Source: a bacterium (GTDB lineage Bacteria; Patescibacteriota; Minisyncoccia; Phycocordibacterales; UBA1006). From it: a DNA stretch of 64,000 nt. This document shows positions 1,972 through 21,782 of the stretch, one piece after another; within the stretch, counting starts at the first letter, position 1, and every line of letters begins with the position of its first letter. The notes beneath the pieces are model-generated. The model made no database searches. It was not told where the DNA came from and saw only the letters and a list, made by a program, of their open reading frames with translations. Both the position numbers and the translations under genes were made by a program. The DNA lies in the NCBI GenBank assembly GCA_037144045.1, contig JBAWXN010000002.1, positions 54,734 through 118,733 on the forward strand, in the 5' to 3' direction.

Positions 1972-2062
1972 AATAGATACTATATTTTATATTAATAGAA
2001 TACGAGTATACACCCGTTACTTTACTTTGTAAAGTAGTTATATATTATGCTACACTCTCACT

Positions 2063-2290: not shown

Positions 2291-2332
2291 ATGTCTATAC
2301 TGCCACCATTATCCTTAATTAATACTATTCTT

Positions 2333-2872: not shown

Positions 2873-2934
2873 CTATTTTCGGTTATCCACAGAGATCCTG
2901 ACAATCAGGGTCTTTTGTGTTATTATAAGAGTAT

Positions 2935-3243: not shown

Positions 3244-3252
3244 TGCTTTTTT
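3226..3252 (+). terminator. Rho-independent terminator
   Basis: AGCACT-gaaat-AGTGCT followed by TTTTTT. Confidence 0.5.
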
Positions 3253-3278
3253 AATTATTTATGTTACAGTAAAACCCT

Positions 3279-4340
3279 ATGTCACAGCCAACAATCACAA
3301 AACTTGAAAAGTCTCGTGTTGAAATTAAAGCAGTAGTTCCTGCTGCAACATTCGACAGTTATAAGCAAAAAGCCCTTGAATCTATTGGAAAAGTTGCAAA
3401 AATTGATGGATTCCGTCCCGGCCATATTCCAGCGAACGTGGTGGAAAAGCACGTAGGTGATGCTGGCATCCTCGATGAAATGGCGCAAATTGCTATCATG
3501 GACGCTTACCCAACCATTCTTACTGAAAATAAGATCGACGCTATTGGGCGCCCAGAAATTCAAATTACTAAAATTGCCATGGGTAACGATTTGGAATTTA
3601 CTGCGACAACCGCAGTGCTTCCTACTGTTGAACTTGCTGACTACAAAAAAATTGCAAAGGAATCAAATAAGTCAGAAACTGAGGTATCAGTAGACGAAAC
3701 CGAAATAAATGCAGCACTTACTGAATTGCGACAAATGCGCGCGCATAACGAACTCCATGAACTAGGTGTTGAACATCACGATCATGACCATACTAAAATT
3801 TCAGAAGAAAGCCTTCCTGAACTTACTGATGATTTTGTAAAAACACTCGGTAAATTCGAAGGGATCGAAGACTTCAAAACTAAACTTCGTGAAAACCTAT
3901 TGAAAGAAAAACAAGCAAAGGAAGTAGAAAAGAAACGAGTAACCCTTATTGATGGCATCATCGATGGATCAACTATCGATTTACCGGACATACTTGTTGA
4001 TTTCGAACTCGATAAAATGATGCAACAATTCGCTCACGACATTTCTATGATGGGAATGACTATGGATGATTACATGAAGCGCATCGAAAAATCTGAAGCT
4101 GACCTTAAAAAGGACTGGTACGATAACGCAGTAAAACGAGCAAAGATGCAGCTCATTCTCGATGAAATTGCCACTCAAGAAAAACTAGCTCCGACCGATG
4201 AAGAAATTCAAGCAGAAGTTGCAAAGATTATGGATATGTATAAAGACGCAAAAGACATTTCGGAAGACCGAGCTCGCGCGTATGTAATGCAAATCCTCAC
4301 TAACGCAAAAGCGTTTGAATATTTGGAAGGATTGAAGTAA
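3279..4340 (+). CDS. tig: trigger factor (short form, apparently lacking a full PPIase domain)
   Basis: N-terminal ribosome-binding signature KIDGFRPGHIP (GFRxGxxP). 353 aa, so shorter than canonical Tig. Conserved tig-clpP synteny. Confidence 0.75.
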   Translation: MSQPTITKLEKSRVEIKAVVPAATFDSYKQKALESIGKVAKIDGFRPGHIPANVVEKHVGDAGILDEMAQIAIMDAYPTILTENKIDAIGRPEIQITKIAMGNDLEFTATTAVLPTVELADYKKIAKESNKSETEVSVDETEINAALTELRQMRAHNELHELGVEHHDHDHTKISEESLPELTDDFVKTLGKFEGIEDFKTKLRENLLKEKQAKEVEKKRVTLIDGIIDGSTIDLPDILVDFELDKMMQQFAHDISMMGMTMDDYMKRIEKSEADLKKDWYDNAVKRAKMQLILDEIATQEKLAPTDEEIQAEVAKIMDMYKDAKDISEDRARAYVMQILTNAKAFEYLEGLK

Positions 4341-6107: not shown

Positions 6108-6602
6108 TTATTTTTGAAGCATTGATTTAACATAATCCACACACGTTTCCAAACTTTCAAAAGTAGGAATTGCATTACGTTCGCAAACAATATCAACATT
6201 ACCCTTCCTCCAAAATCCTTGAGGGCAAATCATGAGACACTTGCCTTCTTTTGCATGTAACCCAAGTTCAAGGAGTGTAACTGGTGATTTAGTATTGGGA
6301 TCAAAGTAGAAAATAATATAATCAGCCATATCCATTCCATTTAATTCCCACTCTACTTGCTTTTTAAATTCTATATTTTCTATTGATTGTATCCATGATG
6401 GATCCCAAGCATCGCGACGAGGATTAAGCAGAGTTACATCAGTATTGCCGAACAATTGCACAACATGGTCTTGCCATTGTTCTGCTACTCCTTCTTCGAT
6501 ACTCCCTGCGAGGAATATTTTAGGCGATGACACCGTAGGAACCAATTCTGGCGCTTTAAACTGAATCATATTACCAGTTTTCTTGGCGAATTGATTCACC
6601 AA
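6108..6602 (-). CDS. nucleoside 2-deoxyribosyltransferase-like (Rcl/DNPH1-fold) protein
   Basis: PKIFLAGSIEEG...LLNPRR...ADYIIFYFD...TLLELGLH fits the flavodoxin-like N-deoxyribosyltransferase/N-glycosidase superfamily. The start may be the internal MIQFKA, avoiding the overlap with prs. Confidence 0.4.
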   Translation of the reverse strand: MVNQFAKKTGNMIQFKAPELVPTVSSPKIFLAGSIEEGVAEQWQDHVVQLFGNTDVTLLNPRRDAWDPSWIQSIENIEFKKQVEWELNGMDMADYIIFYFDPNTKSPVTLLELGLHAKEGKCLMICPQGFWRKGNVDIVCERNAIPTFESLETCVDYVKSMLQK

Positions 6603-7557
6603 GTTTACTGTTAATAATTACTTGAGCAAGCATAGGCGCAAGTGACACTACTTCAAGTTTTTCAAATTTCTTTTCAGGTGCAATGTAAAGACTGTCAGTT
6701 ACAAACACTTTGGTAAATTTAGAATTCTGAAGAATTTCTGGAGCTTCACCATTAAGCAATGCATGTGATGCTGCCATAATTACTTCCTTTGCGCCATGTT
6801 TTTCAATGAGCGCATTCCCCGCTTTTACAGCAGTACTTCCCGTATCAATCATATCATCATACATAAATACCCGTTTACCCGTTACGTCACCGAAAAATTC
6901 CATGTGTTCAATTTCATTAGGTCCAGATCGATATTTAGAAAATGCTGCATTTCCTGTTCCTACTTTTTTTGCAAATGTACGGCCCTCCTTCACAGCGCCT
7001 TCATCCGGACTACAGATCACCCATTCTTCTGGGTTAAGTGTTTCACCTTGTGATTCTAAATATTTTTTCAAGTAATCCCAGAATAATTTTTTCGTTCCAA
7101 TTTTATCTACGGGCACACTCATAAATCCTTCAATGGCGTTGTTATGCAAATGAACACTGGTTAAGTGACTCATTCCTGCAAGTTCGTACATTTTCCCAAG
7201 CAATGATGCATTAATTGACTCGCGACTGTCCGTGGTTTTGTCTTGGCGTTCATAATAATAATACGGAAGCACTACACTAATGCGTGCTGCACCTGATCTG
7301 CGTAATGCGTCGATATAAAACACGAGTCGTAGTACCTCAGTATCAATTGGGTCTTCCATGGTTGAAATCAGCGCAATGTCTTTACCTCGAACCGAAGTTT
7401 CGATAACGGCTTTTTGTTCTCCGTTTTTAAATGTAACTACCGAGCTTTTAATTTCTTCTACTGATTCGTGTTTTTTACGCAACTCATCGATAATTTTTTT
7501 TGGGAGGTCGTGATCGTTTTGAACACCACACACGTAGATAGTTTCTGGTTTGGTCAT
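6571..7557 (-). CDS. prs: ribose-phosphate pyrophosphokinase (PRPP synthetase)
   Basis: PRPP-binding loop VFMYDDMIDTGSTAV, LPYYYYERQDK and N-terminal Prs fold motifs. 328 aa. Confidence 0.9.
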   Translation of the reverse strand: MTKPETIYVCGVQNDHDLPKKIIDELRKKHESVEEIKSSVVTFKNGEQKAVIETSVRGKDIALISTMEDPIDTEVLRLVFYIDALRRSGAARISVVLPYYYYERQDKTTDSRESINASLLGKMYELAGMSHLTSVHLHNNAIEGFMSVPVDKIGTKKLFWDYLKKYLESQGETLNPEEWVICSPDEGAVKEGRTFAKKVGTGNAAFSKYRSGPNEIEHMEFFGDVTGKRVFMYDDMIDTGSTAVKAGNALIEKHGAKEVIMAASHALLNGEAPEILQNSKFTKVFVTDSLYIAPEKKFEKLEVVSLAPMLAQVIINSKLGESIRQENW

Positions 7558-7570
7558 AAATAATTAATAA

Positions 7571-8275
7571 TTACTTGGTTAATAAATAGCGGTCATATAA
7601 ATGAAGCATGGCAAGGGTTGTAGCGCAGTAGCAATACTTGGTAATGTCTTCGAAAGGTACTACACGAACAACAATATGTTCATATTCTTCTTCAAGTCCC
7701 ATCTTAAGTCCATGGTACGTATCCAGAACTTCTTGGGTCACTTCTTTTTCAACCAGGAACGGATAGATAGCTTCGTTGAGGATTCCAGGTGATAAATAAA
7801 ACGGTTTATCAAGGAGTGGAATAACATCATTCGGAGTAAGTCCTAATCGAGTTACCGCATGCGCTTCTTCTTCGAGTTCACGAAGGATCACTGATTCAGG
7901 CGACGTCTGATCGTCAATAAGACCCGCAACTGATTCCGAAATAGTATTTCCTACGGGAACGCGTGGCTGATCTAAGAGGAGCGCATATTTTTTACCTGCA
8001 CAAGTGAGCACGGTAAGTGCAGACACTGCATAATCACGAATCACCACAATCATTCCCGGGAGTTTACCCGCTGGATGAATAATATCTGCCTTAAGTTTTA
8101 TAAAGAGGATGCGTCCGCTTGGAACTCGATCAACCGATTGAATTTCGATTGCCTCGATAATCCATTCTGGATCAAAGGCGTCGAGCCAATTGGTGAACAG
8201 TAATTCTTGAGATATCGTTGCCGCTTCGATCCCTGTAATAGGAATCACCCGATTGTTTTTGGTGATGGTGTGCAT
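7571..8275 (-). CDS. ADP-ribose pyrophosphatase-like Nudix hydrolase (NudF-like)
   Basis: VAGLIDDQTSPESVILRELEEEAH closely resembles the NudF box PAGLIDEGESVEDVARREAIEEAGL. It sits between prs and nadE in the NAD cluster. Confidence 0.55.
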   Translation of the reverse strand: MHTITKNNRVIPITGIEAATISQELLFTNWLDAFDPEWIIEAIEIQSVDRVPSGRILFIKLKADIIHPAGKLPGMIVVIRDYAVSALTVLTCAGKKYALLLDQPRVPVGNTISESVAGLIDDQTSPESVILRELEEEAHAVTRLGLTPNDVIPLLDKPFYLSPGILNEAIYPFLVEKEVTQEVLDTYHGLKMGLEEEYEHIVVRVVPFEDITKYCYCATTLAMLHLYDRYLLTK

Positions 8276-8375
8276 ATGTGATAAAGTTAAAATACCTGAT
8301 AATCATAGCATGCTTGACTCGCGTCGTGCTATTTGCTATGGTAATTAGTGTACTAATAACACTATATCATATCCT

Positions 8376-10319
8376 ATGAAAAATTACAAGTCTCCTTCAA
8401 CCTTTGTTCGTGCTGCAACCATTACCCCTACCCTTACTGTAGGGAACGTTGCCGAAAACACCAAGATCTGCCTTGGCGCTATTAAACAAGCCTACGACGC
8501 CGGTGCACGCATCATCGCTCTGCCTGAACTCGCCCTAACCGGATATACGGCAGCAGACCTGTTTCATACTGACACTCTTAACGCAGCTGTAGAACAAGCG
8601 CTCGTTGATATTGCAGCAGCAACCAAAAAATACGAGGCCACCATCATTATTGGGGCCCCTATCCGAACAGTTCGAGGGATTATCAATGCGGCGGTAGTCT
8701 ACACAGACGGCGAAATTGTAGGGGTAGTGCCTAAAATGCACCTCCCTAACTACAAAGAATTTTATGAGAAACGATGGTTTATTTCTGGATTTGAAACTCC
8801 TGAACCAACTATTTCAATTAATAATGTTGAAGTTCCTTACGGGTCAAACATTTTGTTCACGGATAAAAATAACAAAAAGGTGACTATTGGAATTGAAATT
8901 TGTGAAGACGTATGGATGCCTATACCACCTACTACTGTACACGCACTGAATGGAGCAACTATCTTGATTAACCTTTCGGCGTCAAATGAAATTGTAGGTA
9001 AAGCGGCTTTTCGTAAAGACATGGTAGTAATGCAGTCAGCAAAAACTATCGCCGCGTACATTTACGTGTCATGTGGTGTTCACGAATCTACTACTGATGT
9101 TGTATTTTCTGGACATTCACTCATTGCAGAAAACGGAACACTCATTGCAGAATCACCTCGTTATGCTCGTGAAACCGTAATTACGTACGCCGACATTGAT
9201 ATTGATCACATTGTTACTGATCGCAACCGAACGAATTCATTCGCTGATAATCAAAATGTTGTAGATGTCCCTGCATGGAGCACTATTACGGTTTCTGCAC
9301 CTATTATTAACGGTGTGCCAACCCTTCGTCACGTATCACCTACCCCATTCCTTCCTGCTGACGCAACAAAACGAGCTATCGTTACTGATGATATTTTCAA
9401 TATTCAAGTAGCAGGACTTGCAAAACGACTTCAGAGTATCAATGCTAAAAAAGTAGTCATTGGACTTTCTGGAGGACTTGATTCTACACTTGCCTTCTTG
9501 GTGTGTGTAAAAGTATTTGATTTATTGAAACTTGATCGCAAAGATATTCACGCGATTACCATGCCAGGATTTGGAACAACATCTGGAACTAAAAATAACG
9601 CCTATGATCTAGCAGCTGCAGCTGGTGCAACTCTTGAAGAAATTTCAATTGTTGCAGGAGTGAATCAACACTTCAAAGACATTAAACACGATGACCAAGT
9701 TGAAAACTTTGTGTTTGAAAACAGCCAGGCACGTTATCGAACCATGATCTTGTTTAACAAAGCAAATCAACTAGGTGGTATTGTTGTTGGAACCGGAGAC
9801 CTTTCTGAAATGGCTCTCGGCTGGTGTACCTTCAATGGAGATCATATTTCAAACTACAACGTAAACGGCGGTATTCCAAAAACACTTATTAAATATGTAG
9901 TGCAGCACGTTGCAACAACTGGGGCACCTGATATGCAAAAAGTTCTTACCGACATTTTGGATACCCCTATTTCTCCAGAACTTAAACGAGCTGATAACGA
10001 TAAGATTACTCAGAAAACAGAAGATTTGGTTGGGCCTTACATCCTGCACGACTTCTTCTTGTACCACTTCTTGCGTTGGGGAAGTTCACCGGAAAAAATC
10101 CTTATGCTTGCTGACCTTGCATTCAAGGATTCTGAATTCGACACAGCAACCATTCGTAAATGGTTCAAGGAATTCATGACGCGATTCTTTAAAAATCAAT
10201 GGAAACGTTCAGTTATGGCTGACGGTCCAAAGGTCGGTTCCGTTGCTCTTTCACCTCGTGGTGATTGGCGCATGCCATCTGACGCTGATGTTGCAGAATG
10301 GATAAACAGTGTAGAATAG
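8376..10319 (+). CDS. nadE: glutamine-dependent NAD+ synthetase
   Basis: N-terminal CN-hydrolase domain (PELALTGY, GIEICEDVW with the catalytic Cys) fused to an NAD synthetase domain with the PP-loop GLSGGLDST. 647 aa. Confidence 0.9.
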   Translation: MKNYKSPSTFVRAATITPTLTVGNVAENTKICLGAIKQAYDAGARIIALPELALTGYTAADLFHTDTLNAAVEQALVDIAAATKKYEATIIIGAPIRTVRGIINAAVVYTDGEIVGVVPKMHLPNYKEFYEKRWFISGFETPEPTISINNVEVPYGSNILFTDKNNKKVTIGIEICEDVWMPIPPTTVHALNGATILINLSASNEIVGKAAFRKDMVVMQSAKTIAAYIYVSCGVHESTTDVVFSGHSLIAENGTLIAESPRYARETVITYADIDIDHIVTDRNRTNSFADNQNVVDVPAWSTITVSAPIINGVPTLRHVSPTPFLPADATKRAIVTDDIFNIQVAGLAKRLQSINAKKVVIGLSGGLDSTLAFLVCVKVFDLLKLDRKDIHAITMPGFGTTSGTKNNAYDLAAAAGATLEEISIVAGVNQHFKDIKHDDQVENFVFENSQARYRTMILFNKANQLGGIVVGTGDLSEMALGWCTFNGDHISNYNVNGGIPKTLIKYVVQHVATTGAPDMQKVLTDILDTPISPELKRADNDKITQKTEDLVGPYILHDFFLYHFLRWGSSPEKILMLADLAFKDSEFDTATIRKWFKEFMTRFFKNQWKRSVMADGPKVGSVALSPRGDWRMPSDADVAEWINSVE

Positions 10320-10323
10320 AACT

Positions 10324-10983
10324 ATGCCAGATAAATCATTTCTTAACCCAACGCTTGTGGTAGACATTGTATTATTCACCATTGAGGACGGTGATTTGAA
10401 AGTCCTCTTGATTAATCGTGACGGTGATCCTTTTAAAGGATTTGAAGCACTTCCCGGAGGTTACCTCCTTGCGGGTGAAACAACCAAGACTGCTGCAGAG
10501 CGAGTCCTCAAGGAAAAAGCTGGAGTATCCGATATTTATATCGAACAGCTCTACACGTTTGATGAACTCAATCGTGATCCTCGTGGACCAGTATTTTCAG
10601 TAACCTACCTTGCGCTCGTTCCGCCAGGACTCAATCCTGAAGAACAAGGAACGCAACATCCTAAATGGTTTTCCGTGAAAAAACTTCCTAAGTTAGGATT
10701 TGATCACAAAGCCATTATTGATTACGCTAAGGAACGTCTTCAAGGAAAAATTGAATATACTACTATTGCATTTGGAACCCTCCCTAAACTATTTACCTTA
10801 ACCCAAGTGCAGCAAGTATACGAAGCGATTCTTGAAAAAGAAATTGATAAACGAAATTTCCGTAAGAAGATCGACCAACTTGGCTTCCTTAAAGAAACCA
10901 AGCAAACCCTATCTGGTATGCGCCAGCGCCCTGCGAAGTTGTACACCTTAGGTGCGAAATCTAAAACGATTAAATTGTTTTAA
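10324..10983 (+). CDS. nrtR: NrtR-like Nudix-related transcriptional regulator of NAD metabolism
   Basis: N-terminal Nudix fold with a degenerate box (LPGGYLLAGETTKTAAERVLKEKAGV, Glu replaced by Lys). C-terminal winged helix with NFRKKIDQLGFL...RPAKLYTL, characteristic of NrtR. Embedded among nadE/nadD/pncAB/prs. Confidence 0.6.
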   Translation: MPDKSFLNPTLVVDIVLFTIEDGDLKVLLINRDGDPFKGFEALPGGYLLAGETTKTAAERVLKEKAGVSDIYIEQLYTFDELNRDPRGPVFSVTYLALVPPGLNPEEQGTQHPKWFSVKKLPKLGFDHKAIIDYAKERLQGKIEYTTIAFGTLPKLFTLTQVQQVYEAILEKEIDKRNFRKKIDQLGFLKETKQTLSGMRQRPAKLYTLGAKSKTIKLF

Positions 10984-10984
10984 C

Positions 10985-11020
10985 AAAAAACCCTGTCACT
11001 ATGTGACAGGGTTTCCGTTT
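10985..11020 (+). terminator. Rho-independent terminator
   Basis: ACCCTGTCAC-tat-GTGACAGGGT hairpin followed by a T-rich tract. Confidence 0.5.
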
Positions 11021-11036
11021 TACTAAACGAAAAAAA

Positions 11037-11486
11037 TTAAAGGTTTTGAAGTATCACCAGCGCTTCGTCTTTTGTAATAATTTTATAGTTATTACTGTCT
11101 GAAACCGCAGTATAGTCTTCTTTACCATCTTCAAATCGAACATGGTAGCACAGTCGTAATGTGCCATCATCAAGCTTGAAGAATACTACTGCAATAATTT
11201 CAGCAGGCACATCTCTTCTAAAAGAAAAACTATGTGTGCCAACTAAATATGCTCTTTCGCACTTGGCACGATTTAGATGATCTTCTACTTCTACTTCTGT
11301 TGCAAAAATTGGCTTTAAGCCCGGAAGGAGTTCACCATTATCAGCATAAGCATTGTCACCTAGCCGCTTGGTTTTGTACGGTAAATTATCGAAATGAATC
11401 ATGTCATTTCCGCCAGGGTTGTGATTCATAACAAACACCTCGCCAGGTTTAAGTTCTGGATGATTTTTATTGAATTGCATTCGCAC
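11037..11486 (-). CDS. hypothetical protein (unknown function, inside the NAD cluster)
   Basis: 149-aa ORF between nrtR and nadD. No motif recognised. Confidence 0.35.
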   Translation of the reverse strand: MRMQFNKNHPELKPGEVFVMNHNPGGNDMIHFDNLPYKTKRLGDNAYADNGELLPGLKPIFATEVEVEDHLNRAKCERAYLVGTHSFSFRRDVPAEIIAVVFFKLDDGTLRLCYHVRFEDGKEDYTAVSDSNNYKIITKDEALVILQNL

Positions 11487-11553
11487 ATTTTTAGTTAAAC
11501 AAAGAAATACACTTATTTATAATATCATAAATAAGTGTATTTGTCAATATATC

Positions 11554-12156
11554 TTATCGATACAAGCCTTTTTCCTCGATATAATCATGCACCGCCTGCG
11601 GAATTACTTCTGTGGGTTTTTGATTTCCAGAAATCATGCCCCGTACATCGGTTGCGGATAGTTCTAGAACCCCCGGTAAAAAGGTTGCACGAATACCATG
11701 AGGCACGTCTACAGGAATATTTGAACGATTACGCACAATTAAATCGTGATACGTAACAATTTCATCACCGTATTCCCATGCCAAGATCGATCGCAAGATA
11801 TCATCCCCGGCAATGATTGAAAACGCATAATCAATATGTTTTGCTCGCAATGCACGCAGCGTGTGAAACGTATATGATGGCCGAGGCAGTTCGTCTTCGA
11901 TATCGCACACCTGCATATCCGGATTACTTACCGTTGCACGTCGTACCATTTCAAGGCGGTCTTCGAATGGAGCAAGGCTCCCTAATGGTTTATCAGGATT
12001 ATGTGGCGAAACCACATACCACACCTCGTTCACTAATCCTGCATCAAGGGCCGCTTGCCCAAGTGCAATATGACCGTTGTGAACAGGGTTAAATGAGCCA
12101 AAGAGTAAGCCAACTTTTTTCTTTTCTGCGTATTTCATAGGAATACTATAGCACAA
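11554..12156 (-). CDS. nadD: nicotinate-nucleotide adenylyltransferase
   Basis: FGSFNPVHNGH (HxGH nucleotidyltransferase motif) and the C-terminal LSATDVRGMI (ISSTxIR motif). 200 aa. Confidence 0.85.
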   Translation of the reverse strand: MCYSIPMKYAEKKKVGLLFGSFNPVHNGHIALGQAALDAGLVNEVWYVVSPHNPDKPLGSLAPFEDRLEMVRRATVSNPDMQVCDIEDELPRPSYTFHTLRALRAKHIDYAFSIIAGDDILRSILAWEYGDEIVTYHDLIVRNRSNIPVDVPHGIRATFLPGVLELSATDVRGMISGNQKPTEVIPQAVHDYIEEKGLYR

Positions 12157-12210
12157 GGAGCTACATTGACTTTTTATATAATATGTGATTAATTATAAAA
12201 AAATTTACAA

Positions 12211-13077
12211 ATGAAGAACAAAACAAGCACGTTTTTTGCACTCATCCTGAAATCACCCAAACTTCTGAAACTTTTCAAAATATTAAAATTAATGAAGTTT
12301 GCAAAACCCATGGTGACCATCATTACTATTGCAATTTCAATACTGGCATATTCTATCGTTTATAGTCCATGGATAGCAGTAGGACTCGTGACACTCATTT
12401 TTGTACACGAGATGGGCCACGTCATTGCAATGAACCGACTCGGATTTAAAACAAGTGGACCAGTATTCATACCGTTTCTAGGTGCCGCACTTTTTGCACC
12501 GAGAGACATGACCAGAAAACAAGAAGCCATTCTTGGTATTGGCGGTCCACTACTCGGTAGCCTCTTTGCTTTTCTTGTTGCCGGTATTGCATACCTTACA
12601 CATTCAAAAGAACTCATGATGATCGGTTATCTAGGTATTTTTATAAACCTATTTAATATGGTACCTATTAGTCCCCTTGACAGTGGAAGAGTTACTCAGG
12701 CGGTTGGTAAATTTTTTCCAATTATTGGCTTCTTAATACTTATCGGTGTCACGCTTGCTTTTAAATCTCCGGGGATACTCCTTATTTGGATCTTAGTTCT
12801 TTTTGATTTTACCTTCATGAAGGTTCAGCTACGCTTCTTTTTTGCTCTAATTGTTGAGCTTGCCATGATTTTCATGTTAACTCAAGGAATTGGCATTAGT
12901 GACGATGGTCAATTTTGGTCAGTATTCGCAGACGTAATTATTGGTGGCCTTTACTTATTACTCATTGGAGCAAGTATTGCCTCTGACGCAAAGAAGACGG
13001 AGGAAGTTTTTCTGAAGGCGCAAACCGCGAAGCTCTTACATTTAAAGAAAAACTGTTCTGGTTTTTTACATGGTTAA
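12211..13077 (+). CDS. site-2 protease family (peptidase M50) membrane metalloprotease
   Basis: HEMGH zinc motif in a TM helix. NMVPISPLDSGR matches the second M50 signature (NxxPxxxLDGG). Multiple TM segments. Confidence 0.7.
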   Translation: MKNKTSTFFALILKSPKLLKLFKILKLMKFAKPMVTIITIAISILAYSIVYSPWIAVGLVTLIFVHEMGHVIAMNRLGFKTSGPVFIPFLGAALFAPRDMTRKQEAILGIGGPLLGSLFAFLVAGIAYLTHSKELMMIGYLGIFINLFNMVPISPLDSGRVTQAVGKFFPIIGFLILIGVTLAFKSPGILLIWILVLFDFTFMKVQLRFFFALIVELAMIFMLTQGIGISDDGQFWSVFADVIIGGLYLLLIGASIASDAKKTEEVFLKAQTAKLLHLKKNCSGFLHG

Positions 13078-13259
13078 GTACATCTACAGTTTTACTGGTG
13101 TCATTATTCTATATAAAAAGCTCATTACAAGTTTTTGCACTTACTTAATATATACCTCCCTACAATTTTGCGGGGAGGTTATTTTGTTACTTGACTTTAA
13201 ACGTAATTCATGCTATTGTGTATACGGAAGTTTTTCCAAAACAAAAAATTTAAGAAACA

Positions 13260-13799
13260 ATGAAAGGAGCACTTATCGGATTTGGACTTTTTGCCGTAAT
13301 TGGCTTAGGCCTATTTTTTTACTACATCGGTTTGAAAAACACTGAACAACGCCAACGTAACGCAGTAAATGCACAAACACAGGCAGCGCAGGTTAATTTT
13401 GACGCCATGTGGAAAATCATTAAAGAACAAGCCGGTGTGGCTGATAAGCACAAGGATGCATTTAAGGAAATTTTTATTGGGCAGGCAGAGGCTCGCTATT
13501 CAAAAGACGGGAACCTTATGTTCAAAATGATTACCGAAGACAATCCTGCTTTCACACCCGAACTATATGCAAAATTAATGACTTCTATTGAAGCAAACCG
13601 TAAGGCGTTTGAATTCGAACAGAAAAAATTAATTAGCATGAACCAGGTGCACACCGATTTTGTAACTACATTCCCCGGTAGCATACTTGGCAAAGAAGTA
13701 ATTGAAATTAAATTAGTAACTTCAGCCAGAACAAAAAATGCTTACGAAACCGGTGAAGACAACGAAACATTAATTGACGAGAAGAAACCCACTAAGTAA
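13260..13799 (+). CDS. membrane-anchored hypothetical protein (LemA-like topology, motifs not conserved)
   Basis: Single N-terminal TM followed by a helical soluble domain. It lacks the LemA RRxDLIPNLV motif. Immediately precedes the Cys-rich membrane protein. Confidence 0.35.
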   Translation: MKGALIGFGLFAVIGLGLFFYYIGLKNTEQRQRNAVNAQTQAAQVNFDAMWKIIKEQAGVADKHKDAFKEIFIGQAEARYSKDGNLMFKMITEDNPAFTPELYAKLMTSIEANRKAFEFEQKKLISMNQVHTDFVTTFPGSILGKEVIEIKLVTSARTKNAYETGEDNETLIDEKKPTK

Positions 13800-13802
13800 C
13801 CC

Positions 13803-14939
13803 ATGGTAATATACGGAGCCGTACTTATCTCGATTATTGTTACCGCGCTCCTCTTCCTTTATTTTAGAAAGCAAATCGCGTGGTGGGAATATTTTATTCC
13901 CATCCCGGTTTCTTTACTATTAGTAATTGGAATGAAGGCCATGATTGAACAAACCCAAGTAACCTCTACGGAATACTGGGGCAGCATGGTTGCGCGCGTT
14001 GAATACTACGAAGACTGGGATGAGTGGATCACTCAAACCTGCTACAAAGAGTGCTGCTGTGATAAAGATGGTAAAAACTGTGGTCAAGAGCCATACGACT
14101 GCTCCCACAGAGACTACCATTCAGCCTACTGGCAAATCATTACTACAACAGGAGAAACGATTTCGATAACCGAATCGGAGTACGCCCGTATCAAAGGCAT
14201 ACTTGGCAATGAAACATTCAAAGATCTTGGTCGTGATTATTACACCAAGGACGGAGATGAATACTATTGCACCTGGGATGGGAGTGAAGCAAAAGCAATA
14301 CCTGTTACAACGGTTCACAGTTACGAAAACCGCGTAAAAGCAACCGACCTCAACGTGTTTCACTTTGACAAGGTTGATGATAGTACTAAAGTTCACTACG
14401 AACTGAAAGACTATCCCGGCATGGTAAACAATAACTACACTCAAAATTCATTACTCGGAGATAATTCCCCCGATGCAGTCCAAGCTAATAAAAAGCTTAA
14501 CTACATCAACGGGAAACTCGGACCTAAAAAACAGGTTCGCGTATTCCTCCTTGTTTTCAAAGACCAACCACTTGATGCAGGAATGTACCAAGAATGGTAC
14601 TGGGCCGGAGGAAACAAAAATGAGTTTGTGGTATGCGTTGGCATTGACCGTAACCGTAATGTTACCTGGTGCAAACCTATTAGTTGGACGTACAACGAAA
14701 CACTTAAGGTTGAGACCCGTGATTTTGTTACCCAGCAGAAGCAAGTGAACTTAACCGCTATCGCCAACTACTTGGAATCAGCCATAGATACCAAATTCCA
14801 AAGAAGACATTTCAAGGAGTTTAACTATCTAACGGTTGAACCACCAACGTGGGCCATTGTTCTTACCTACATCATTACTCTATTAGTCAATTTTGGAATC
14901 GGCTACTGGGTAATCAATAACGAATTTGACGAAGAGTAA
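13803..14939 (+). CDS. Cys-rich membrane protein with N- and C-terminal TM helices
   Basis: 378 aa. TM at both ends, a central domain with CYKECCCDKDGKNCG...YDCSH...YYCTWDG, and several N-glycosylation-like NxT/S sites. No known family recognised. Confidence 0.35.
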   Translation: MVIYGAVLISIIVTALLFLYFRKQIAWWEYFIPIPVSLLLVIGMKAMIEQTQVTSTEYWGSMVARVEYYEDWDEWITQTCYKECCCDKDGKNCGQEPYDCSHRDYHSAYWQIITTTGETISITESEYARIKGILGNETFKDLGRDYYTKDGDEYYCTWDGSEAKAIPVTTVHSYENRVKATDLNVFHFDKVDDSTKVHYELKDYPGMVNNNYTQNSLLGDNSPDAVQANKKLNYINGKLGPKKQVRVFLLVFKDQPLDAGMYQEWYWAGGNKNEFVVCVGIDRNRNVTWCKPISWTYNETLKVETRDFVTQQKQVNLTAIANYLESAIDTKFQRRHFKEFNYLTVEPPTWAIVLTYIITLLVNFGIGYWVINNEFDEE

Positions 14940-15009
14940 TCTTCATATCCCTTCTCTTAATTGAGGAGGGATTTTTTTAGGTAAATAAATCCAGTCCATT
15001 TTCTAACTA

Positions 15010-15038
15010 TTGACTTTTATCTATTAATATGTTATATT
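15010..15038 (+). promoter_or_regulatory. sigma70-like promoter upstream of pncA
   Basis: TTGACT-N17-TATATT about 90 nt upstream of the pncA start, in an AT-rich spacer. Confidence 0.35.
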
Positions 15039-15124
15039 AGTATAGATAGAGTATACAAAATATCATGTCTGTGATATATTGTACTTAATACACTAATTAG
15101 TTCATCTTAATAAATTTCATCAAT

Positions 15125-15748
15125 ATGATTGCATTCCTAATTACCATTCTCTTTCTGGTTGCCATAGTATATGTCCTTACCAGAATTATAGCTCTACTAA
15201 ACATCGACATGCAAAATGGTTTCACTCCAGGCGGAGAGCTTGGCGTGAAAGAAGGTGACGTAATTATACCAATAATTAACCGACTCACCTTCTGGTTCAT
15301 CCATATCTTTCGCGCTCTTGTCGTATTTTCTAGAGACTGGCATCCGCGTGTTTCTAAACACTTCAAGGAATTTGGCGGCAATTGGTCAACCCACTGTGTA
15401 ATTAATACACATAGTGCGGAATTCCATAAGGATTTGTTTGTTCCGAAAAATGCCAACATTCTTTCAAAAGGTTTGTACGAAGACGACCAAGCCTACTCGG
15501 CATTCGATAAGAATGCTCGCATCAACGGCATGGACCTAGCCACCTACTTGCGCAAGAAAGGAATAAAGATCCTCTTTGTCACCGGTCTCGCAACAGACTG
15601 GTGTGTGAAGGAAACTGTCCTAGATGCGCGAAAAAATGGATTCTGGGTATTTGTAATCACGAGCGCTATGCGTCCCGTGAATTTGAAACCTGGAGACGAA
15701 GAACGTGCCATCAAGGAAATGAAGGCCGCCGGTGCCATCATTATCTAA
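15125..15748 (+). CDS. pncA: nicotinamidase/pyrazinamidase (isochorismatase family)
   Basis: ALLNIDMQNGF (Asp), FSRDWHP, WSTHCV (catalytic Cys) and GLATDWCV. The N-terminus has an extra 20-aa hydrophobic extension, so the start is uncertain. Confidence 0.8.
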   Translation: MIAFLITILFLVAIVYVLTRIIALLNIDMQNGFTPGGELGVKEGDVIIPIINRLTFWFIHIFRALVVFSRDWHPRVSKHFKEFGGNWSTHCVINTHSAEFHKDLFVPKNANILSKGLYEDDQAYSAFDKNARINGMDLATYLRKKGIKILFVTGLATDWCVKETVLDARKNGFWVFVITSAMRPVNLKPGDEERAIKEMKAAGAIII

Positions 15749-15754
15749 TTTCCA

Positions 15755-15787
15755 AAAACAGCGCCCGGCTAACCCGGGCGTTTTTAT
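15755..15787 (+). terminator. Rho-independent terminator after pncA
   Basis: CGCCCGG-ctaac-CCGGGCG followed by TTTTTATT. Confidence 0.55.
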
Positions 15788-15816
15788 TACTCTAAGTTCG
15801 TGATATATTTAATTTT

Positions 15817-17136
15817 ATGACAACCAATAGAACTACAGAAAACCCAAAAACATTCTCAAGTCTTAATCTCGGACAGCTCGACGATTCGATGTTGAACGGC
15901 CAGATTGTTACTTCACTTCTTGAAGATGACTTTTATAAATTTTCCATGGGACAGGTGCTTTTCGACCATCCAGAATATGGCAATGAAATAATGGTTTGGC
16001 GATTCAAATGCCGAACTAAAATCGCACTTGGTGAATATATTACCGAGGCAGATTTCATGAACGAATACCACCATGTCACGAAACTGCGAGCAACAAAGAC
16101 TGAACTACATTACCTCCGAGGAACCAATGAATACGATGTCCGCATGTTTACTGAAGAGTACCTCGAACACCTTGCAAATCTCCAGGTACCTCCCGCAACA
16201 TTTCATGTAACCCCTGATAATCATATCGAAATTGAAGTCGCAGGACCATGGAGTCATGTGATGCATGCAGAAATGCCCATTTTGAAAATAATCAACACCC
16301 TCTTCTATCGCAGTCAGTTAAAAAATATGTCTCGGATACAACGAGAAGCGATCTATGCAGAAGGAATTAAACGACTCCATGGAACGATACAGCAAATCAA
16401 GGAGCATCCGCATGTTAAATTTTCTGATTTTGGAAACCGTCGCGCATTCGGACCCGTGTGGCATGATTATGTAGTGGCTCGATGTGCGGAAGAATTAGGT
16501 GACCAATTTATTGGGACTTCGAACGTTGCCCTTGCATCTAAATATGATCTGTCACCTATCGGAACCTGTGCTCACGAACTTTCTATGGGAATCACTGCAC
16601 TTATGTTCGACGGCACCGGACAGTCCGTAAAGGATTCACTCAACCGACTCCATGAAATTTGGTGGAATAAGTATGGTCAAGGACTCTCAATTAGTCTTCC
16701 CGATACCTACGGCACGACATTCACCCTTGATCTTATGACGGAACAAATGCTCCGCGACTGGAAAGGATTCCGTATCGATTCCAAAGACCCCATGGTGGCT
16801 ATTCCCGAATTGATCGAAAAATATACCGCTCTAGGTATCGATCCAAAAACAAAAATGGCAATTCCTAGTGACGGGCTCACTGTTGAATCAATGATCGCCA
16901 TCGCTGATACATTCCAAGGACAGATGAAAGTATCGTTTGGTATTGGAACGAATCTTACGAACAATATGGGTCTCAAACAACTCTCTATTGTGGTAAAACC
17001 ATATTCACTCGGAGGAAAATACTGCGTGAAACTTTCCGACAACCTCGAAAAGGCTATGGGAGAACCAGAGACCGTTGCTGCTTACAAGAAAGCACTCGGA
17101 TATCACGAAACCTATGACAAAGAAACTATTGTTTAA
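15817..17136 (+). CDS. pncB: nicotinate phosphoribosyltransferase
   Basis: LLEDDFYKFSM (PncB N-terminus), DFGNRRA and GTSNV motifs. 439 aa. Confidence 0.85.
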   Translation: MTTNRTTENPKTFSSLNLGQLDDSMLNGQIVTSLLEDDFYKFSMGQVLFDHPEYGNEIMVWRFKCRTKIALGEYITEADFMNEYHHVTKLRATKTELHYLRGTNEYDVRMFTEEYLEHLANLQVPPATFHVTPDNHIEIEVAGPWSHVMHAEMPILKIINTLFYRSQLKNMSRIQREAIYAEGIKRLHGTIQQIKEHPHVKFSDFGNRRAFGPVWHDYVVARCAEELGDQFIGTSNVALASKYDLSPIGTCAHELSMGITALMFDGTGQSVKDSLNRLHEIWWNKYGQGLSISLPDTYGTTFTLDLMTEQMLRDWKGFRIDSKDPMVAIPELIEKYTALGIDPKTKMAIPSDGLTVESMIAIADTFQGQMKVSFGIGTNLTNNMGLKQLSIVVKPYSLGGKYCVKLSDNLEKAMGEPETVAAYKKALGYHETYDKETIV

Positions 17137-17264: not shown

Positions 17265-18926
17265 ATGAATTCACCAAACGAACAAACACTGAGAGATGCT
17301 GTTTTTGATAAGCTCTCACAGATATTCGAGTTAATTCCGGACGCGACTCAAGATTTATGGAGTGCAGCCACTCGTGGAGCATTCCCTACTGAAACCCTTG
17401 CTGCCATCTACGATGACCTTGGGCTATTTCTGGATTCATATCCCGAATACCGAAGACTTGTGTTGTACATCCCATTTGAGTTACTACCCTATTGCAATGA
17501 CAACTGCACAGTTATGAGTGCGAAACTCAACCAATCTGCACAAACATTCCTCGTCTCTTACCTCAAGAGATGGAACGAGTTACTACACATCAGTGATGTG
17601 CGTGCTAATTTCATGAACGGAGACGTTCCAGAAGACCACCTCTTAACTGAACCCCTGCATCGCACGACCAAAGCAGCGCAGTTGATTCCCTTGCTCATAC
17701 GTAAGAATATTCTGTCTCGAAAACACGCTCAAACATTGTGGCTCGAGTCTGATGGGTTACTTAATGAGACCCTCACAGAAGTTCTTGGTTATACAAGCGT
17801 GCCCACACCGGACGATCTATTTTCTTCATGCGAAATCATTGAGAATCAATTTATCGTTGATAGTCATAATCTGACTGATGCACGAGCAAACTGGCTACGC
17901 CAGGTGCGCATCCATGCACTTACAGAAAAAAATGCGTTGCAGCTTGTGGAAAAAATCAAATTAGGTAATGGTTCGATAGATGATCTGAAAAAATATCTAT
18001 CGGCTCATAGTAGTCCTACGGTTCACCAAACAGGAATTATAGCTCTTCGTGAATATGCTCAGCATCTCGCAAAGACTGACCTGTTATCGGCTCAGCAGTT
18101 AGCAAGCTCGTTTGCAGAACTATTAACAGCGTTATGGGAGACCGCTTCTCATGAGAACAAGGACCTGATAGGAACTCTCGTATCGCATTTTGCATACTTG
18201 AAAATAATTCCGGAAGATAGTTCTTTGTTGCAACTAACTCAGATCCCTTTCCCGTCATTTGCGCGCTTCTTTATAGAAACAACCCATGAAACGAATCAGC
18301 TTTTGGATGAACTGAAACGATTAACTTTGACTATTGAGACCGATGAAGTATCGCAGTATGTCTATCCAATAATTATTGCGTATGGTTCGCAGATAAAAGG
18401 ATACAGTGGAATTGGTGCAGACATTGATAGTGCTGTACTTATAAAACCGGGCACTGAGGTTTCGAAGCGTGAATATATTCATGAAAGGCTCAGTCAGATT
18501 CTGGTCCATGAAAAAATAAAAGAGTTGCCAACTGAGTTTTGGATTACTGAAAGTAACGGAACCATTGGTATTCGAGATTATAAAAGTTTCTCGCATCCTG
18601 ATAATCAGATTGGTGATTCATTATTTATTCATATCCTGCTTCAATGTCCCTGGATCGGAAACAGTGAACTGATTCAGTTACTCAAACCAGCAGTTCACTC
18701 TATCTATACTCGAAACACGATTCCTACCAATCGAAATCTTTGGGCAGAATCACTCGAACACGATATCATTCAGTATCGACTCCTACACAAAGGCTATGCG
18801 AGACTGTTTCCTAAACAAATTCCGGCCACACTTCCTAATGTTATTGATGTTGAAAGTACGTTCTGGGATTCTGGATTCAGAAGACTTGCAACACTTTTGT
18901 ATATCAAGAAGGTCATAGTTCCGTAA
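17265..18926 (+). CDS. large hypothetical protein with a C-terminal minimal nucleotidyltransferase (MNT/Pol-beta-like) domain
   Basis: 553 aa. Residues about 365-395, IIAYGSQIKGYSGIGADIDSAVLI, form a G[S]-x10-DxD nucleotidyltransferase-fold signature. The helical N-terminal region of about 360 aa has no recognisable family. Confidence 0.45.
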   Translation: MNSPNEQTLRDAVFDKLSQIFELIPDATQDLWSAATRGAFPTETLAAIYDDLGLFLDSYPEYRRLVLYIPFELLPYCNDNCTVMSAKLNQSAQTFLVSYLKRWNELLHISDVRANFMNGDVPEDHLLTEPLHRTTKAAQLIPLLIRKNILSRKHAQTLWLESDGLLNETLTEVLGYTSVPTPDDLFSSCEIIENQFIVDSHNLTDARANWLRQVRIHALTEKNALQLVEKIKLGNGSIDDLKKYLSAHSSPTVHQTGIIALREYAQHLAKTDLLSAQQLASSFAELLTALWETASHENKDLIGTLVSHFAYLKIIPEDSSLLQLTQIPFPSFARFFIETTHETNQLLDELKRLTLTIETDEVSQYVYPIIIAYGSQIKGYSGIGADIDSAVLIKPGTEVSKREYIHERLSQILVHEKIKELPTEFWITESNGTIGIRDYKSFSHPDNQIGDSLFIHILLQCPWIGNSELIQLLKPAVHSIYTRNTIPTNRNLWAESLEHDIIQYRLLHKGYARLFPKQIPATLPNVIDVESTFWDSGFRRLATLLYIKKVIVP

Positions 18927-18996: not shown

Positions 18997-20190
18997 TTAT
19001 ACTCTTGTACGAACTTTACCATTACCACCAATTCCTGATAAGCCTTTGTCGAGCTTGTCCCATGGAATGGTCGCACCTAACTGAATCATGGCCGCAATAT
19101 AACGGTATTCTTCATCAGGAACAGTAATTTTAGGGAATTCGATAATTGCCAAGGTGAAGCGAGTAATGTTTCTTTCTAAGCGAACATAATCGGCACCAAC
19201 TGCAATATCAAGCTGCTTCAGCATTTGATCGCGATTGATTGCGCCTACTGCGGCAGGAAGAGATGGATTCTCTAAAACCTCTTTAATGCGCGTAGCGTCA
19301 TAAGCCAAGGCTTTTGCAATCGGAATACCGAGTCCTGCAAACACCTTATTAATGCTTTCATTCACTGCTTCTGCTTCGTCATGCAAGCCGTTAGTTTCTG
19401 GTGGGGTAATCATACCAGACATTAAGCCAGTCTTTCCACCACCTAACTGTCCCATTAATAACATCGCAATATTGGCACTACTACCCGCTCCTGCATTGTA
19501 TGCTTCAAGCCACTGTGAAAGCATTTCGTTGAAGCCACGCAATGAACCCCAAAGATTTGCTTCTAATTTTGCAAGAAATGCTTTTTGGCGAGCATCGCTC
19601 ATGAATGAGCCTTCGATTCCCATAGCGTTCAATACCTCAGCATAACTTCTGGTAACAACCAGCTTTTGAAGCTTAAAGTACTCAGCTCCTACCGGTTCAG
19701 CTTGCTCTTCTGCAAACACTTCCATTTTTTCTTTGATAATCTTTGGGAGTCCAAACAGTCCAAGCTTATTTGCTATTCCTGCTTTTACAGCAGAAAGCAC
19801 TTCAGTCTTTCCTACTTTCAACTCACCACCAACTTTCAGAGAAGCAACAAAGCTTTCATCTTCGGGCACACTTGGCAATACTGCATCATACGCATTTGGA
19901 GTAGCACGTTCCTCTGCAACTACAACCGGCGCACCGCGCAATTTAGCGAGGTTCAACTTAAGTTTCCCTAATGGGATATTAAGCGACCCAAGCGCTTTAA
20001 TTAATTCCTCATCGCTGAAAGCTTCCTTACTGGAAAGCACTTCGAGAGCCGCAGTAGCTGATTTTTCATCCACTGGATCGCCAGTGTGAACTGCAAGCAA
20101 CGCAGAAATTTCATCGAGGTTTTTTTCTACCGCCTCGGCAAAGGGCTGAACTCTGTCGTTCCAACCCTTAAAATAATTTGTTGTACTCAT
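18997..20190 (-). CDS. hypothetical protein (397 aa)
   Basis: No confident family. Contains a Gly-rich stretch NAGAGSSANIAMLLMGQLGGGKTGLMSG. Confidence 0.3.
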   Translation of the reverse strand: MSTTNYFKGWNDRVQPFAEAVEKNLDEISALLAVHTGDPVDEKSATAALEVLSSKEAFSDEELIKALGSLNIPLGKLKLNLAKLRGAPVVVAEERATPNAYDAVLPSVPEDESFVASLKVGGELKVGKTEVLSAVKAGIANKLGLFGLPKIIKEKMEVFAEEQAEPVGAEYFKLQKLVVTRSYAEVLNAMGIEGSFMSDARQKAFLAKLEANLWGSLRGFNEMLSQWLEAYNAGAGSSANIAMLLMGQLGGGKTGLMSGMITPPETNGLHDEAEAVNESINKVFAGLGIPIAKALAYDATRIKEVLENPSLPAAVGAINRDQMLKQLDIAVGADYVRLERNITRFTLAIIEFPKITVPDEEYRYIAAMIQLGATIPWDKLDKGLSGIGGNGKVRTRV

Positions 20191-20342
20191 TACTTTTTCT
20201 TTTTTAGTTTAAAAATACAATTTCTACAATCAAGATATCCCATTTAAAGATATTTGTCAAGCAACCTGTGGATAAGTGTAATTTGTACACTAAAAAACAG
20301 ATTCTTGCGAATCTGTTGATACTATCTCCTAGTATTATGTTG

Positions 20343-21737: not shown

Positions 21738-21782
21738 ATCTCAATAATTTACTGTTGAAAATGTTTTTGAAAAATGTGTGTA

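Follow-up and report, generated by a model that had tools for sequence, protein, structure and literature searches.

NrtR regulons were described by Rodionov et al. in 2008 (PMC2330246) as circuits in which a repressor combining a degenerate Nudix domain with a domain of the winged helix-turn-helix type (wHTH) binds palindromes positioned over promoters; in most NrtR groups, this palindrome is 21 bp long and carries a GT-N7-AC core. The targets include pncA, nadE, prs and nrtR itself, and nrtR is linked by position to the genes of nicotinamide adenine dinucleotide (NAD) metabolism. Here, we describe a cluster of NAD salvage and recycling genes that shares these features, located at positions 6108-17136 of a 64-kb stretch of DNA (64,000 nt of contig JBAWXN010000002.1, hereafter the window) from a bacterium of the Patescibacteria type. 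The locus differs from the regulons of the 2008 survey in several respects. Its host belongs to the Patescibacteria, a lineage outside that survey, and its motif occurs in DPANN archaeal contigs as well, with the lineage-specific consensus TTAGTGT-N7-ACACTAA. Also counted in the predicted regulon are a Nudix gene of the catalytic kind, an enzyme of family PF15891, a protein of 397 aa and an operon of three genes encoding a kinase-like protein, a von Willebrand factor A (vWA) domain protein and a relative of adenylosuccinate synthetase (AdSS), together referred to as the trio, while nadD and pncB lack sites of their own.

The interpretation best supported for the NAD cluster is a standard NrtR circuit whose host is unusual. 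We consider it quite probable that control of the cluster lies with a non-catalytic repressor of the NrtR family, the product of 10324-10983, and that the operators of this repressor also control the 397-aa gene and the trio.

Genes of the cluster and their regulator

An earlier, sequence-only reading of the region had named nine genes for the cluster. All nine are present in the open reading frame (ORF) listing, and their family assignments are backed by profile models from Pfam and NCBIfam, with one ORF that matches no family:

6108-6569, minus strand (ORF listed as 6108-6602): nucleoside 2-deoxyribosyltransferase-like protein of family PF15891 (Nuc_deoxyri_tr2, 114 bits), last gene of the nudix-prs-ndt operon
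6571-7557, minus strand: prs, ribose-phosphate diphosphokinase for the supply of phosphoribosyl pyrophosphate (PRPP); TIGR01251 267.8 bits, cutoff 113; Pfam Pribosyltran_N and Pribosyl_synth
7571-8275, minus strand: Nudix hydrolase, 234 aa; PF00293 24.5 bits, REx2EE core intact
8376-10319, plus strand: nadE, glutamine-dependent NAD synthetase; NF002730 818.8 bits, cutoff 473; CN_hydrolase and NAD_synthase domains
10324-10983, plus strand: nrtR, Nudix-related repressor; NUDIX and NrtR_WHD domains; begins 4 nt after nadE
11037-11486, minus strand: 149-aa ORF matching no family
11554-12156, minus strand: nadD, nicotinate-nucleotide adenylyltransferase; TIGR00482 125 bits, cutoff 112.45
15125-15748, plus strand: pncA, nicotinamidase; Isochorismatase 93.3 bits; NF008623 143.9 bits, below the cutoff of 174
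15817-17136, plus strand: pncB, nicotinate phosphoribosyltransferase; NAPRTase 136.9 bits and NAPRTase_N 77.3 bits; TIGR01514 261.6 bits, slightly under the cutoff of 269.55

The Preiss-Handler set of PncA, PncB, NadD and NadE is encoded in full, with NadE and NadD scoring above their equivalog cutoffs and PncA and PncB passing the Pfam models only. Inspection of PncA revealed the catalytic D/K/C triad and the DWHP..H metal site. Prs and a Nudix hydrolase are encoded as well, in line with the earlier view of the region as the Preiss-Handler route supplemented with PRPP supply and, probably, ADP-ribose recycling.

The gene at 10324-10983 had been taken for an NrtR-like regulator with a degenerate Nudix domain and a C-terminal wHTH, and both parts of this description hold. 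The product matches PF00293 (NUDIX) with 47.6 bits over residues 16-131, and a profile comparison with the NrtR family returned PF21906 (NrtR_WHD) with 84.5 bits over residues 150-209, against a cutoff of 27. Its Nudix box, GX5EX7REUXEEXGU in the general form, reads G-YLLAG-E-TTKTAAE-R-V-L-K-E-K-A-G-V. RVLKEK stands where the motif has REUxEE, and two of its catalytic glutamates, the E of RE and the latter E of EE, are lost. This degeneration runs through the clade, as illustrated by the consensus RILKEK across 25 homologues.

Two solved structures can be aligned end to end with the regulator: AraR of Bacteroides thetaiotaomicron (BtAraR, PDB 5BS6, arabinose-responsive), which has the same two-domain fold and scores 140 bits, and NrtR of Shewanella oneidensis (SoNrtR, PDB 3GZ5/3GZ6/3GZ8, ADP-ribose-responsive), which scores 109.5 bits. 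The window protein is ~30% identical to SoNrtR by inspection of the alignment, and the operator sequences of the two differ. The ADP-ribose-contacting residues of SoNrtR and their replacements in AraR were taken from the AraR structure paper (PMC4666351), and were mapped by alignment to SoNrtR with a constant chain offset of +3, which gave the right residue type at each of the four positions checked. The contacts R41, K76, R98 and F15 of SoNrtR correspond to R32, K65, R87 and F6 of the window protein, so that four of the six contacts are kept. The residues that fill the cleft in AraR, F36, L67 and G89, are replaced with G, K and R, and the targets of the window protein are NAD genes rather than arabinose genes. 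Contacts that are mostly kept, along with the absence of the AraR cleft residues, favour a nucleotide-type effector such as ADP-ribose.

An alternative on this point is that the regulator does belong to the NrtR family but senses another ligand, either NAD, as Corynebacterium NdnR does, or a pentose, as AraR/XylR do, in which case the circuit would work by product feedback or by the sensing of sugar. Within the family, both NAD and arabinose are documented as effectors (PMC4666351), and several features of the window protein weigh against ADP-ribose, the assignment of which is comparative. The best-scoring solved relative is the arabinose-responsive AraR, and two of the six SoNrtR contacts are absent: N43 is replaced with Gly, and Y10 has no counterpart because the N-terminus is too short. 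Moreover, the NCBIfam equivalog NF050029 (ADPR responsive transcriptional repressor) scores 146.8 bits against a cutoff of 400, which places the protein in the broad NrtR family, outside this narrow orthologous group. Against a different ligand stand K65 and R87, which contact phosphate and ribose, and F6, which stacks on adenine, all of which are kept, together with the absence of the residues that fill the nucleotide cleft in AraR. There are also no pentose-utilisation genes nearby, and all recognised targets are NAD genes. We regard another ligand as rather unlikely and retain an ADP-ribose-type effector as the favoured assignment for the window NrtR.

NrtR operators in the window and in related loci

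In a repeat search, 8342-8369 and 15072-15099 emerged as an inverted match of 28 nt with the core TAGTGT-N7-ACACTA, which lies within the 21-bp consensus palindrome given above. A pattern search for this palindrome returned four good matches in the window, all of them intergenic. For scoring, 95 different sites from other loci that carry NrtR were combined into a position weight matrix (PWM), with the window and its near-identical strains excluded.

8345-8365: NrtR operator 1, TTAGTGTACTAATAACACTAT, in the divergent region between nudix-prs-ndt and nadE-nrtR; 1 mismatch to the consensus, PWM 24.8 bits
15076-15096: NrtR operator 2, ATATTGTACTTAATACACTAA, upstream of pncA; PWM 22.3 bits
20273-20293: NrtR operator 3, TAAGTGTAATTTGTACACTAA, between the terminator of the AdSS-like gene and the promoter-like site of the 397-aa gene; PWM 23.1 bits
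24017-24037: NrtR operator 4, TTAGTGTTATTATAACACTAA, between the trio operon and the divergent gene 24101-25048; perfect consensus with 0 mismatches, PWM 25.5 bits

The four sites score 22.3-25.5 bits, compared with 6.6 bits for the next best position and a maximum of 19.1 bits in 200 simulated 64-kb sequences; as the training sites were themselves chosen by similarity to the motif of the window, these scores are not fully independent, which weakens the case to some extent.

All four sites overlap or adjoin promoter-like hexamers. Operator 1 starts 3 nt past the -10 element of the promoter-like sequence TTGACT-17-TATGGT (8314-8342) of nadE-nrtR, and overlaps the -10 element of a minus-strand promoter-like site (8389-8361) of nudix-prs-ndt. 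It thereby spans both divergent promoters, so that one site can repress both operons, nrtR included. With nrtR beginning only 4 nt after nadE, the regulator is predicted to be autoregulated through operator 1. Operator 2 overlaps the -10 element of TATACA-17-TATATT (15052-15080) ahead of pncA, and operator 4 that of a minus-strand promoter-like site at 24052-24025. Less favourable are the position of operator 3, the centre of which lies ~58 nt upstream of the predicted start and hence not in the classic position for repression, and the nature of the promoter predictions, which are consensus matches no more numerous than in shuffled sequence.

The whole supra-cluster had been proposed to stand under NrtR, with a shared palindrome expected in five intergenic regions. 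This expectation was borne out for 8276-8375 and 14940-15124, which provide nudix-prs-ndt, nadE-nrtR and pncA with sites. The PWM scan returned no operator before nadD (12157-12210), the 149-aa ORF (11487-11553) or pncB (15749-15816), the last of which is also split from pncA by a terminator-like hairpin. Consequently, control by NrtR is indicated for only part of the cluster. At the same time, the regulon reaches past the range considered previously, as operators 3 and 4 extend it over 18997-24037.

The operators recur in related loci (numbered L001 onward). Operator 1 is kept in L001, L003, L083, L087, L073, L018 and L009, and an operator precedes pncA in the same loci other than L003; in L001 this is so even though its pncA is a xenologue of 47% identity. 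Among relatives whose NrtR shares 49-81% identity with that of the window (L003, L083, L087, L073, L018, L009), sites precede nadE, pncA and pncB, and the position of operator 3 is the same in L083, L090 and L098. Across 84 NrtR-bearing loci (1.3 Mb), we found 92 sites of at least 18 bits, which lie upstream of nrtR in 20 cases, nadE in 11, pncA in 10, nadD in 4, nudF in 3 and pncB in 2.

Three contigs labelled Woesearchaeota/Nanobdellati (L020, L052, L059) encode NrtR homologues of 47-49% identity and carry TTAGTGT-N7-ACACTAA before pncB and nrtR. This suggests that the regulator and its motif are shared across domains among ultra-small episymbionts. The reach of the NrtR regulon would extend to Patescibacteria of ultra-small size and, judged by the motif, to archaeal contigs of the DPANN group, and the operator consensus makes regulon prediction possible in thousands of uncultured genomes.

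The 397-aa gene and the kinase-like/vWA/AdSS-like trio

A described system of related composition is the TerY-P triad, in which a vWA protein, a PP2C phosphatase and a Ser/Thr kinase are proposed to form a phosphorylation switch. The window likewise has adjacent kinase-like and vWA genes in one operon, but its module comes without PP2C and with an AdSS-like enzyme, and its kinase-like protein lacks the HRD Asp. The enzyme, in turn, shares the AdSS fold family, the P-loop and the GH and TxxD motifs with PurA and phage PurZ, from which it differs in that its gene family is consistently paired with kinase-like and vWA genes. The genes in question are as follows:

17265-18926, plus strand: protein of 553 aa; weak signature of a Pol-beta-type nucleotidyltransferase (Polbeta/NTP_transf_2)
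18997-20190, minus strand: 397-aa protein with its own NrtR operator (operator 3), syntenic in 18 loci
20343-21737, minus strand: divergent enzyme of the adenylosuccinate synthetase superfamily; PF00709 112 bits
21844-22995, minus strand: vWA domain protein of the type with a metal-ion-dependent adhesion site (MIDAS), assigned by structure model and Foldseek
23066-23926, minus strand: protein-kinase-like protein, first gene of the trio operon; family profile matches CK2-alpha with E 2.6e-12

Operator 4 lies 91 nt upstream of the trio operon. In the kinase-like protein, the catalytic HRD Asp is not conserved; the protein is 30% identical (E 1e-14) to gp258 of phage Sauce, annotated as serine/threonine kinase. 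The vWA protein could not be assigned by sequence, as Pfam searches with 27 members, PDB profile searches and hhalign comparison with a classical vWA all failed. An AlphaFold 2 model from a single sequence was likewise uninformative, with a pLDDT (local distance difference test, predicted) score of 33.7. The model from a 69-sequence alignment reached a pLDDT of 93.1, and its Foldseek matches comprise integrin beta-I, vWF-A3, RGLG1 and SpaC (E 1.7e-5, probability 1.0). D81, S85, D126, E139 and D193 are invariant in the family. We take the assignment of 21844-22995 as a vWA domain protein to be settled at the level of the structure model.

The AdSS-like protein retains the P-loop GDxGKG, the GH motif and the guanine-specificity Asp of TxxD. 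Its score with TIGR00184 (81.8 bits against a cutoff of 395.55) qualifies it as a superfamily member only. An orthodox PurA was considered and rejected, as the protein stays far under the equivalog cutoff and its substrate-contact motifs are altered. At what we take to be the Asp- and inosine monophosphate-contacting positions of E. coli PurA, TTGRxR is changed to WQGKxR and EGAQG to ESSHG in the AdSS-like clade. Over its full length, the protein is 33% identical to the PurA-like proteins of Bixzunavirus.

Of the two remaining proteins, the 553-aa one is syntenic in L083, L073 and 13-15 metagenome loci, and from this gene order it is an accessory to the trio in Patescibacteria. The 397-aa protein has no family and no PDB match. 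A Walker A motif was considered for it and rejected, since the GQLGGGKT stretch is not conserved across the family. The whole block from the 553-aa to the kinase-like gene lies within the NAD cluster in L083, and in the distant L073 (NrtR 49% identical) it adjoins nadD-nadE-nrtR and pncA-pncB.

A metagenome scan with the AdSS-like alignment yielded 80 loci, of which the 35 with at least 3.6 kb upstream of the AdSS-like gene are informative. Directly upstream of this gene, a kinase-like gene is found in 30 and a vWA gene in 31 of the 35. In Verrucosispora sp. WMMA2044, at 5.290-5.295 Mb of CP114913.1, and in Actinomadura scrupuli, an operon consists of nrtR, a gene of 324/349 aa, a gene of 319/322 aa and the AdSS-like gene. 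Of the two genes in the middle, the first matches the kinase-like family and the second the vWA family. Tandem palindromes of the form TTCTCA-N3/4-TGAGAA precede operons of this type (L170 5100-5200; L171 4900-4960; upstream of nrtR in L154, L159, L165 and L168) and presumably represent the operator of the actinobacterial NrtR clade; that this palindrome is a different one fits the known lineage variability of NrtR motifs.

The trio is also encoded by Bixzunavirus mycobacteriophages, as gp258 (kinase), gp259 and gp260 (PurA-like). In Sauce gp259 (L089 5197-6984), annotated as HNH endonuclease, the similarity to the window vWA protein flanks an insert of ~200 residues, and the phage protein looks like a vWA protein into which an intein-like element has been inserted.

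A competing explanation is that the trio merely neighbours the NAD cluster behind a chance palindrome, and constitutes an unrelated purine-salvage or signalling module. Neither nrtR nor the motif accompanies the trio in 20 of the 35 informative loci, and the operator between the trio and pncA in L083 could serve pncA alone. However, the window site upstream of the trio matches the 21-bp consensus perfectly, and pncA lies elsewhere. An nrtR homologue is adjacent in 8 of the 35 loci, a site of at least 15 bits occurs within 900 bp in 11 of the 35 (chance estimated from simulations at < 0.01 per kb), and one or the other is present in 15 of the 35. In addition, the actinobacterial operons are led by nrtR itself. 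A chance association is quite unlikely, and on present evidence we regard the trio as an apparently undescribed target of the NrtR family. No paper linking NrtR with adenylosuccinate synthetase was found in the literature searched, and part of the trio may already have been seen in 2008 as nrtX-nrtY, the uncharacterised targets of NrtR reported by Rodionov et al.

In the sister strains, another module stands behind NrtR operators. In L001, L085 and L087, and probably also in L003, it is composed of isochorismatase-like, classical vWA (motifs DVTGS...GGYT...TDGGDN), PP2C phosphatase and kinase-like genes. These TerY-P-like operons occupy L001 15849-20134, L085 10864-15194 and L087 13926-18706, with one or two NrtR operators ahead. 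In L001, the operon directly follows pncB, where the window has the block from the 553-aa to the kinase-like gene. TerY-P-like modules are reported to act as antiphage systems (Gao 2020, cited in PMC11090510); PADLOC gave no defence-system match to the trio or to the PP2C set of the relatives.

For the trio itself, we infer a phosphorylation- or MIDAS-gated nucleotide-ligase function tied to NAD/ADP-ribose status. In a broader and more tentative form, which we would rate as possible but short of even, NrtR governs the trio beyond the NAD and pentose genes, and ADP-ribose serves as an alarm of NAD cleavage that switches on NAD replenishment along with a phosphorylation-gated, nucleotide-modifying stress or defence function, for which the TerY-P-like set would be interchangeable in the sister strains. 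On this view, the 397-aa and nucleotidyltransferase-like proteins would extend the module in Patescibacteria, Actinobacteria and other metagenomic lineages would have it too, and Bixzunavirus mycobacteriophages would have captured it. The trio offers a testable link between NAD/ADP-ribose status and a putative nucleotide-ligase chemistry, in a gene set that is repeatedly linked to NrtR and carried by mycobacteriophages; cultivable Micromonospora/Verrucosispora and Actinomadura strains and Mycobacterium phages give access to it.

Proposed mechanism and remaining alternatives

Sequence analysis shows the gene identities and the operators with their statistics, positions and conservation. In the mechanism we propose, NrtR dimers would bind the 21-bp palindromes at the promoters. 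Cleavage of NAD would lead to accumulation of ADP-ribose, which would bind the degenerate Nudix pocket and cause the repressor to leave the DNA; the repression, the effector and the enzyme substrates in this scheme follow by analogy, with Shewanella and Synechocystis NrtR as the models for the switch. The induced functions would comprise deamidation of nicotinamide by PncA, perhaps accompanied by PncB via read-through, the final amidation by NadE, conversion of ADP-ribose to adenosine monophosphate and ribose-5-phosphate by the Nudix hydrolase, and PRPP formation by Prs. The PF15891 N-glycosidase-like enzyme and the repressor itself would be induced as well, while nadD and the 149-aa ORF would remain outside direct NrtR control. 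Through operators 3 and 4, the repressor would also act on the 397-aa gene and on the kinase-like/vWA/AdSS-like operon.

Another possibility, that the Nudix-wHTH protein is mainly a catalytic ADP-ribose pyrophosphatase and that the palindromes belong to another transcription factor, is very improbable. Joint Genome Institute pipelines do label homologues as 8-oxo-dGTP diphosphatase, and enzymatic activity does occur in some members of NrtR whose boxes are intact. Here, by contrast, the catalytic motif is replaced across the clade, the regulon possesses a separate Nudix gene with an intact REx2EE, and the motif adjoins nrtR in bacterial phyla and DPANN archaea, directly upstream of the gene in the 20 cases counted above. 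We give almost no credence to the region being a phage or mobile-element cassette for NAD reconstitution (NARP-like counter-defence): PHROG matches of the LemA-like, 378-aa and AdSS-like proteins, the trio in mycobacteriophages, tRNA genes scattered in the window and gene content varying between near-identical strains could be read that way, but the PHROG matches are to generic families, the flanks are housekeeping genes, no capsid or terminase gene and no match to 50,697 phage records was found, synteny extends to relatives, and none of NARP1-3, which use Adps/Namat, NadV/NMNAT or PnuC/NadR, fits pncA/pncB/nadD/nadE.

Candidate members of the regulon

The sequence-only reading had put forward two candidate new members, of which one holds up. 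The deoxyribosyltransferase-like (PF15891) gene recurs with NrtR and NAD genes: it follows prs in L001 and L083, follows nrtR in L087, and lies close to nrtR in L018, L020 and L051. The gene probably begins at 6569 and so encodes 153 aa, in agreement with the gene calls in the relatives L001 and L002. The only solved relative of the protein is the uncharacterised 4MCJ (E 5e-22). Members of the DrHyd/deoxyribosyltransferase superfamily cleave or exchange N-glycosidic bonds, and some of them act on NAD (PMC9503650). From this chemistry, the PF15891 enzyme is plausibly an N-glycosidase or transferase that acts upstream of Prs, freeing a base and ribose-5-phosphate from a nucleotide of the pyridine or adenine type, and we put it forward as a real component of NAD recycling.

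The Nudix hydrolase at 7571-8275 scores 22 bits with TIGR00052 against a cutoff of 79.55, and its match to YffH/AdpP is weak. The best PDB relatives are ADP-sugar pyrophosphatases, namely T. thermophilus Ndx2 and NUDT5, with weak E-values of 1e-4 to 1e-3. The stretch AGLIDDQTSPESVILRELEEEA aligns with NUDT5, and the enzyme is probably an ADP-ribose/ADP-sugar pyrophosphatase.

The 149-aa ORF, the second candidate, was rejected as a member of the regulon or of NAD metabolism, as only 3 homologues are found among 5.8 billion proteins, all in close strains, and no operator precedes it. It has no Pfam, NCBIfam or PHROG family, with only a weak chance match at relaxed thresholds. Co-occurrence with NAD genes fails beyond the near-identical strains: the ORF is missing in L083 and L087, and L083, with an 80%-identical NrtR, has an unrelated 143-aa ORF and a transglutaminase-core gene in its place. 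A strong promoter-like site belongs to the ORF itself and lies inside a palindrome:

11505-11542: palindrome of 19+19 nt without spacer, 95% complementary, conserved in L001

This palindrome overlaps the best sigma-70-like promoter of the region, TTGACA-17-TATTAT (11547-11519, minus strand, for the 149-aa ORF). It was considered as an NrtR site and rejected, since its ACACT/AGTGT half-sites are wrongly oriented and spaced and nothing in it scored with the PWM. It may be a promoter/terminator element of the 149-aa ORF and nadD, serve another regulator as its operator, or terminate transcription in both directions.

Organization and host of the cluster

The cluster is real but not contiguous. 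Between nadD and pncA lie three genes that are not related to NAD, and hairpins mark two further boundaries:

10988-11014: terminator-like hairpin where nrtR and the 149-aa gene converge, 12-pair stem
12211-13077, plus strand: M50-like membrane protease gene
13260-13799, plus strand: LemA-like protein
13803-14939, plus strand: 378-aa membrane protein
15760-15782, plus strand: GC-rich terminator-like hairpin between pncA and pncB; stem of 9 pairs, 7 of them GC, followed by a T tail

The earlier claims of contiguity and of compression into one locus were accordingly too strong, given these three interrupting genes (12211-14939) and a relative, L087, with a more compact arrangement than that of the window.

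The host is a cellular organism of the Patescibacteria type. The window contains the housekeeping genes tig, clpP, ppa (inorganic pyrophosphatase), pyrG (CTP synthase) and comM, as well as genes for RNase Y and a CCA-adding enzyme, and these flanks establish a cellular origin; with megablast, the 11-kb region showed no nucleotide match to the phage collection. The nearest named homologues of the regulator come from metagenome-assembled genomes of Candidatus Nomurabacteria/Paceibacteria, and the tig-clpP-NAD synteny recurs in relatives. No riboswitch was found in the window with Rfam.

The near-identical strains L001 and L002 originate from an ENA metagenome and a Logan assembly. Most proteins of L001 are 77-100% identical to those of the window (about 91-100% for most), and the rest of the locus is ~95% identical. 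The pncA and pncB genes of L001 (13788-15737) are only 47% and 38% identical to those of the window (15125-17136). Judged from these identities, the pair is a case of xenologous replacement in which the upstream NrtR operator has been retained. The M50-like gene (12211-13077) is missing from L001 and constitutes a strain-specific insertion within the cluster.

At its N-terminus (window 15125-15190), PncA carries a hydrophobic segment of ~22 residues, MIAFLITILFLVAIVYVLTRII. A similar segment is found in L083 and L001, but not in L087 and L073, and the nicotinamidase may be membrane-anchored or exported.

Other observations in the window

Beyond the trio, a 451-aa FAD-dependent oxidoreductase of the Mqo/DAO-like type is encoded at 25106-26461 (minus strand), without an NrtR site of its own. 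Homologues of 33% identity in the DPANN contigs L052 (~2024-3439) and L059 (~7614-9050) have a 24-bit NrtR operator directly upstream. Upstream of the oxidoreductase gene, 26541-30502 (minus strand) encodes a PF13528 glycosyltransferase, an HPr-kinase-C/P-loop-like protein, a 329-aa protein and a PhyH-type dioxygenase, and this run of genes may form a small modification pathway.

At 47752-48726 (minus strand), a 324-aa protein combines a P-loop kinase-like N-terminus (AAA_18, weak) with a NUDIX domain (69.6 bits), with no nearby NrtR site; it could be another nucleotide- or NAD-related enzyme. Finally, four dispersed tRNA genes (Gly-TCC, Pro-TGG, Arg-TCG and Gly-GCC) are found among short ORFs at 35590-39095. 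The tRNA-Gly(GCC) gene (39022-39095) lies inside the listed ORF of the CCA-adding enzyme (38943-40613), which places the true start of this ORF further downstream.

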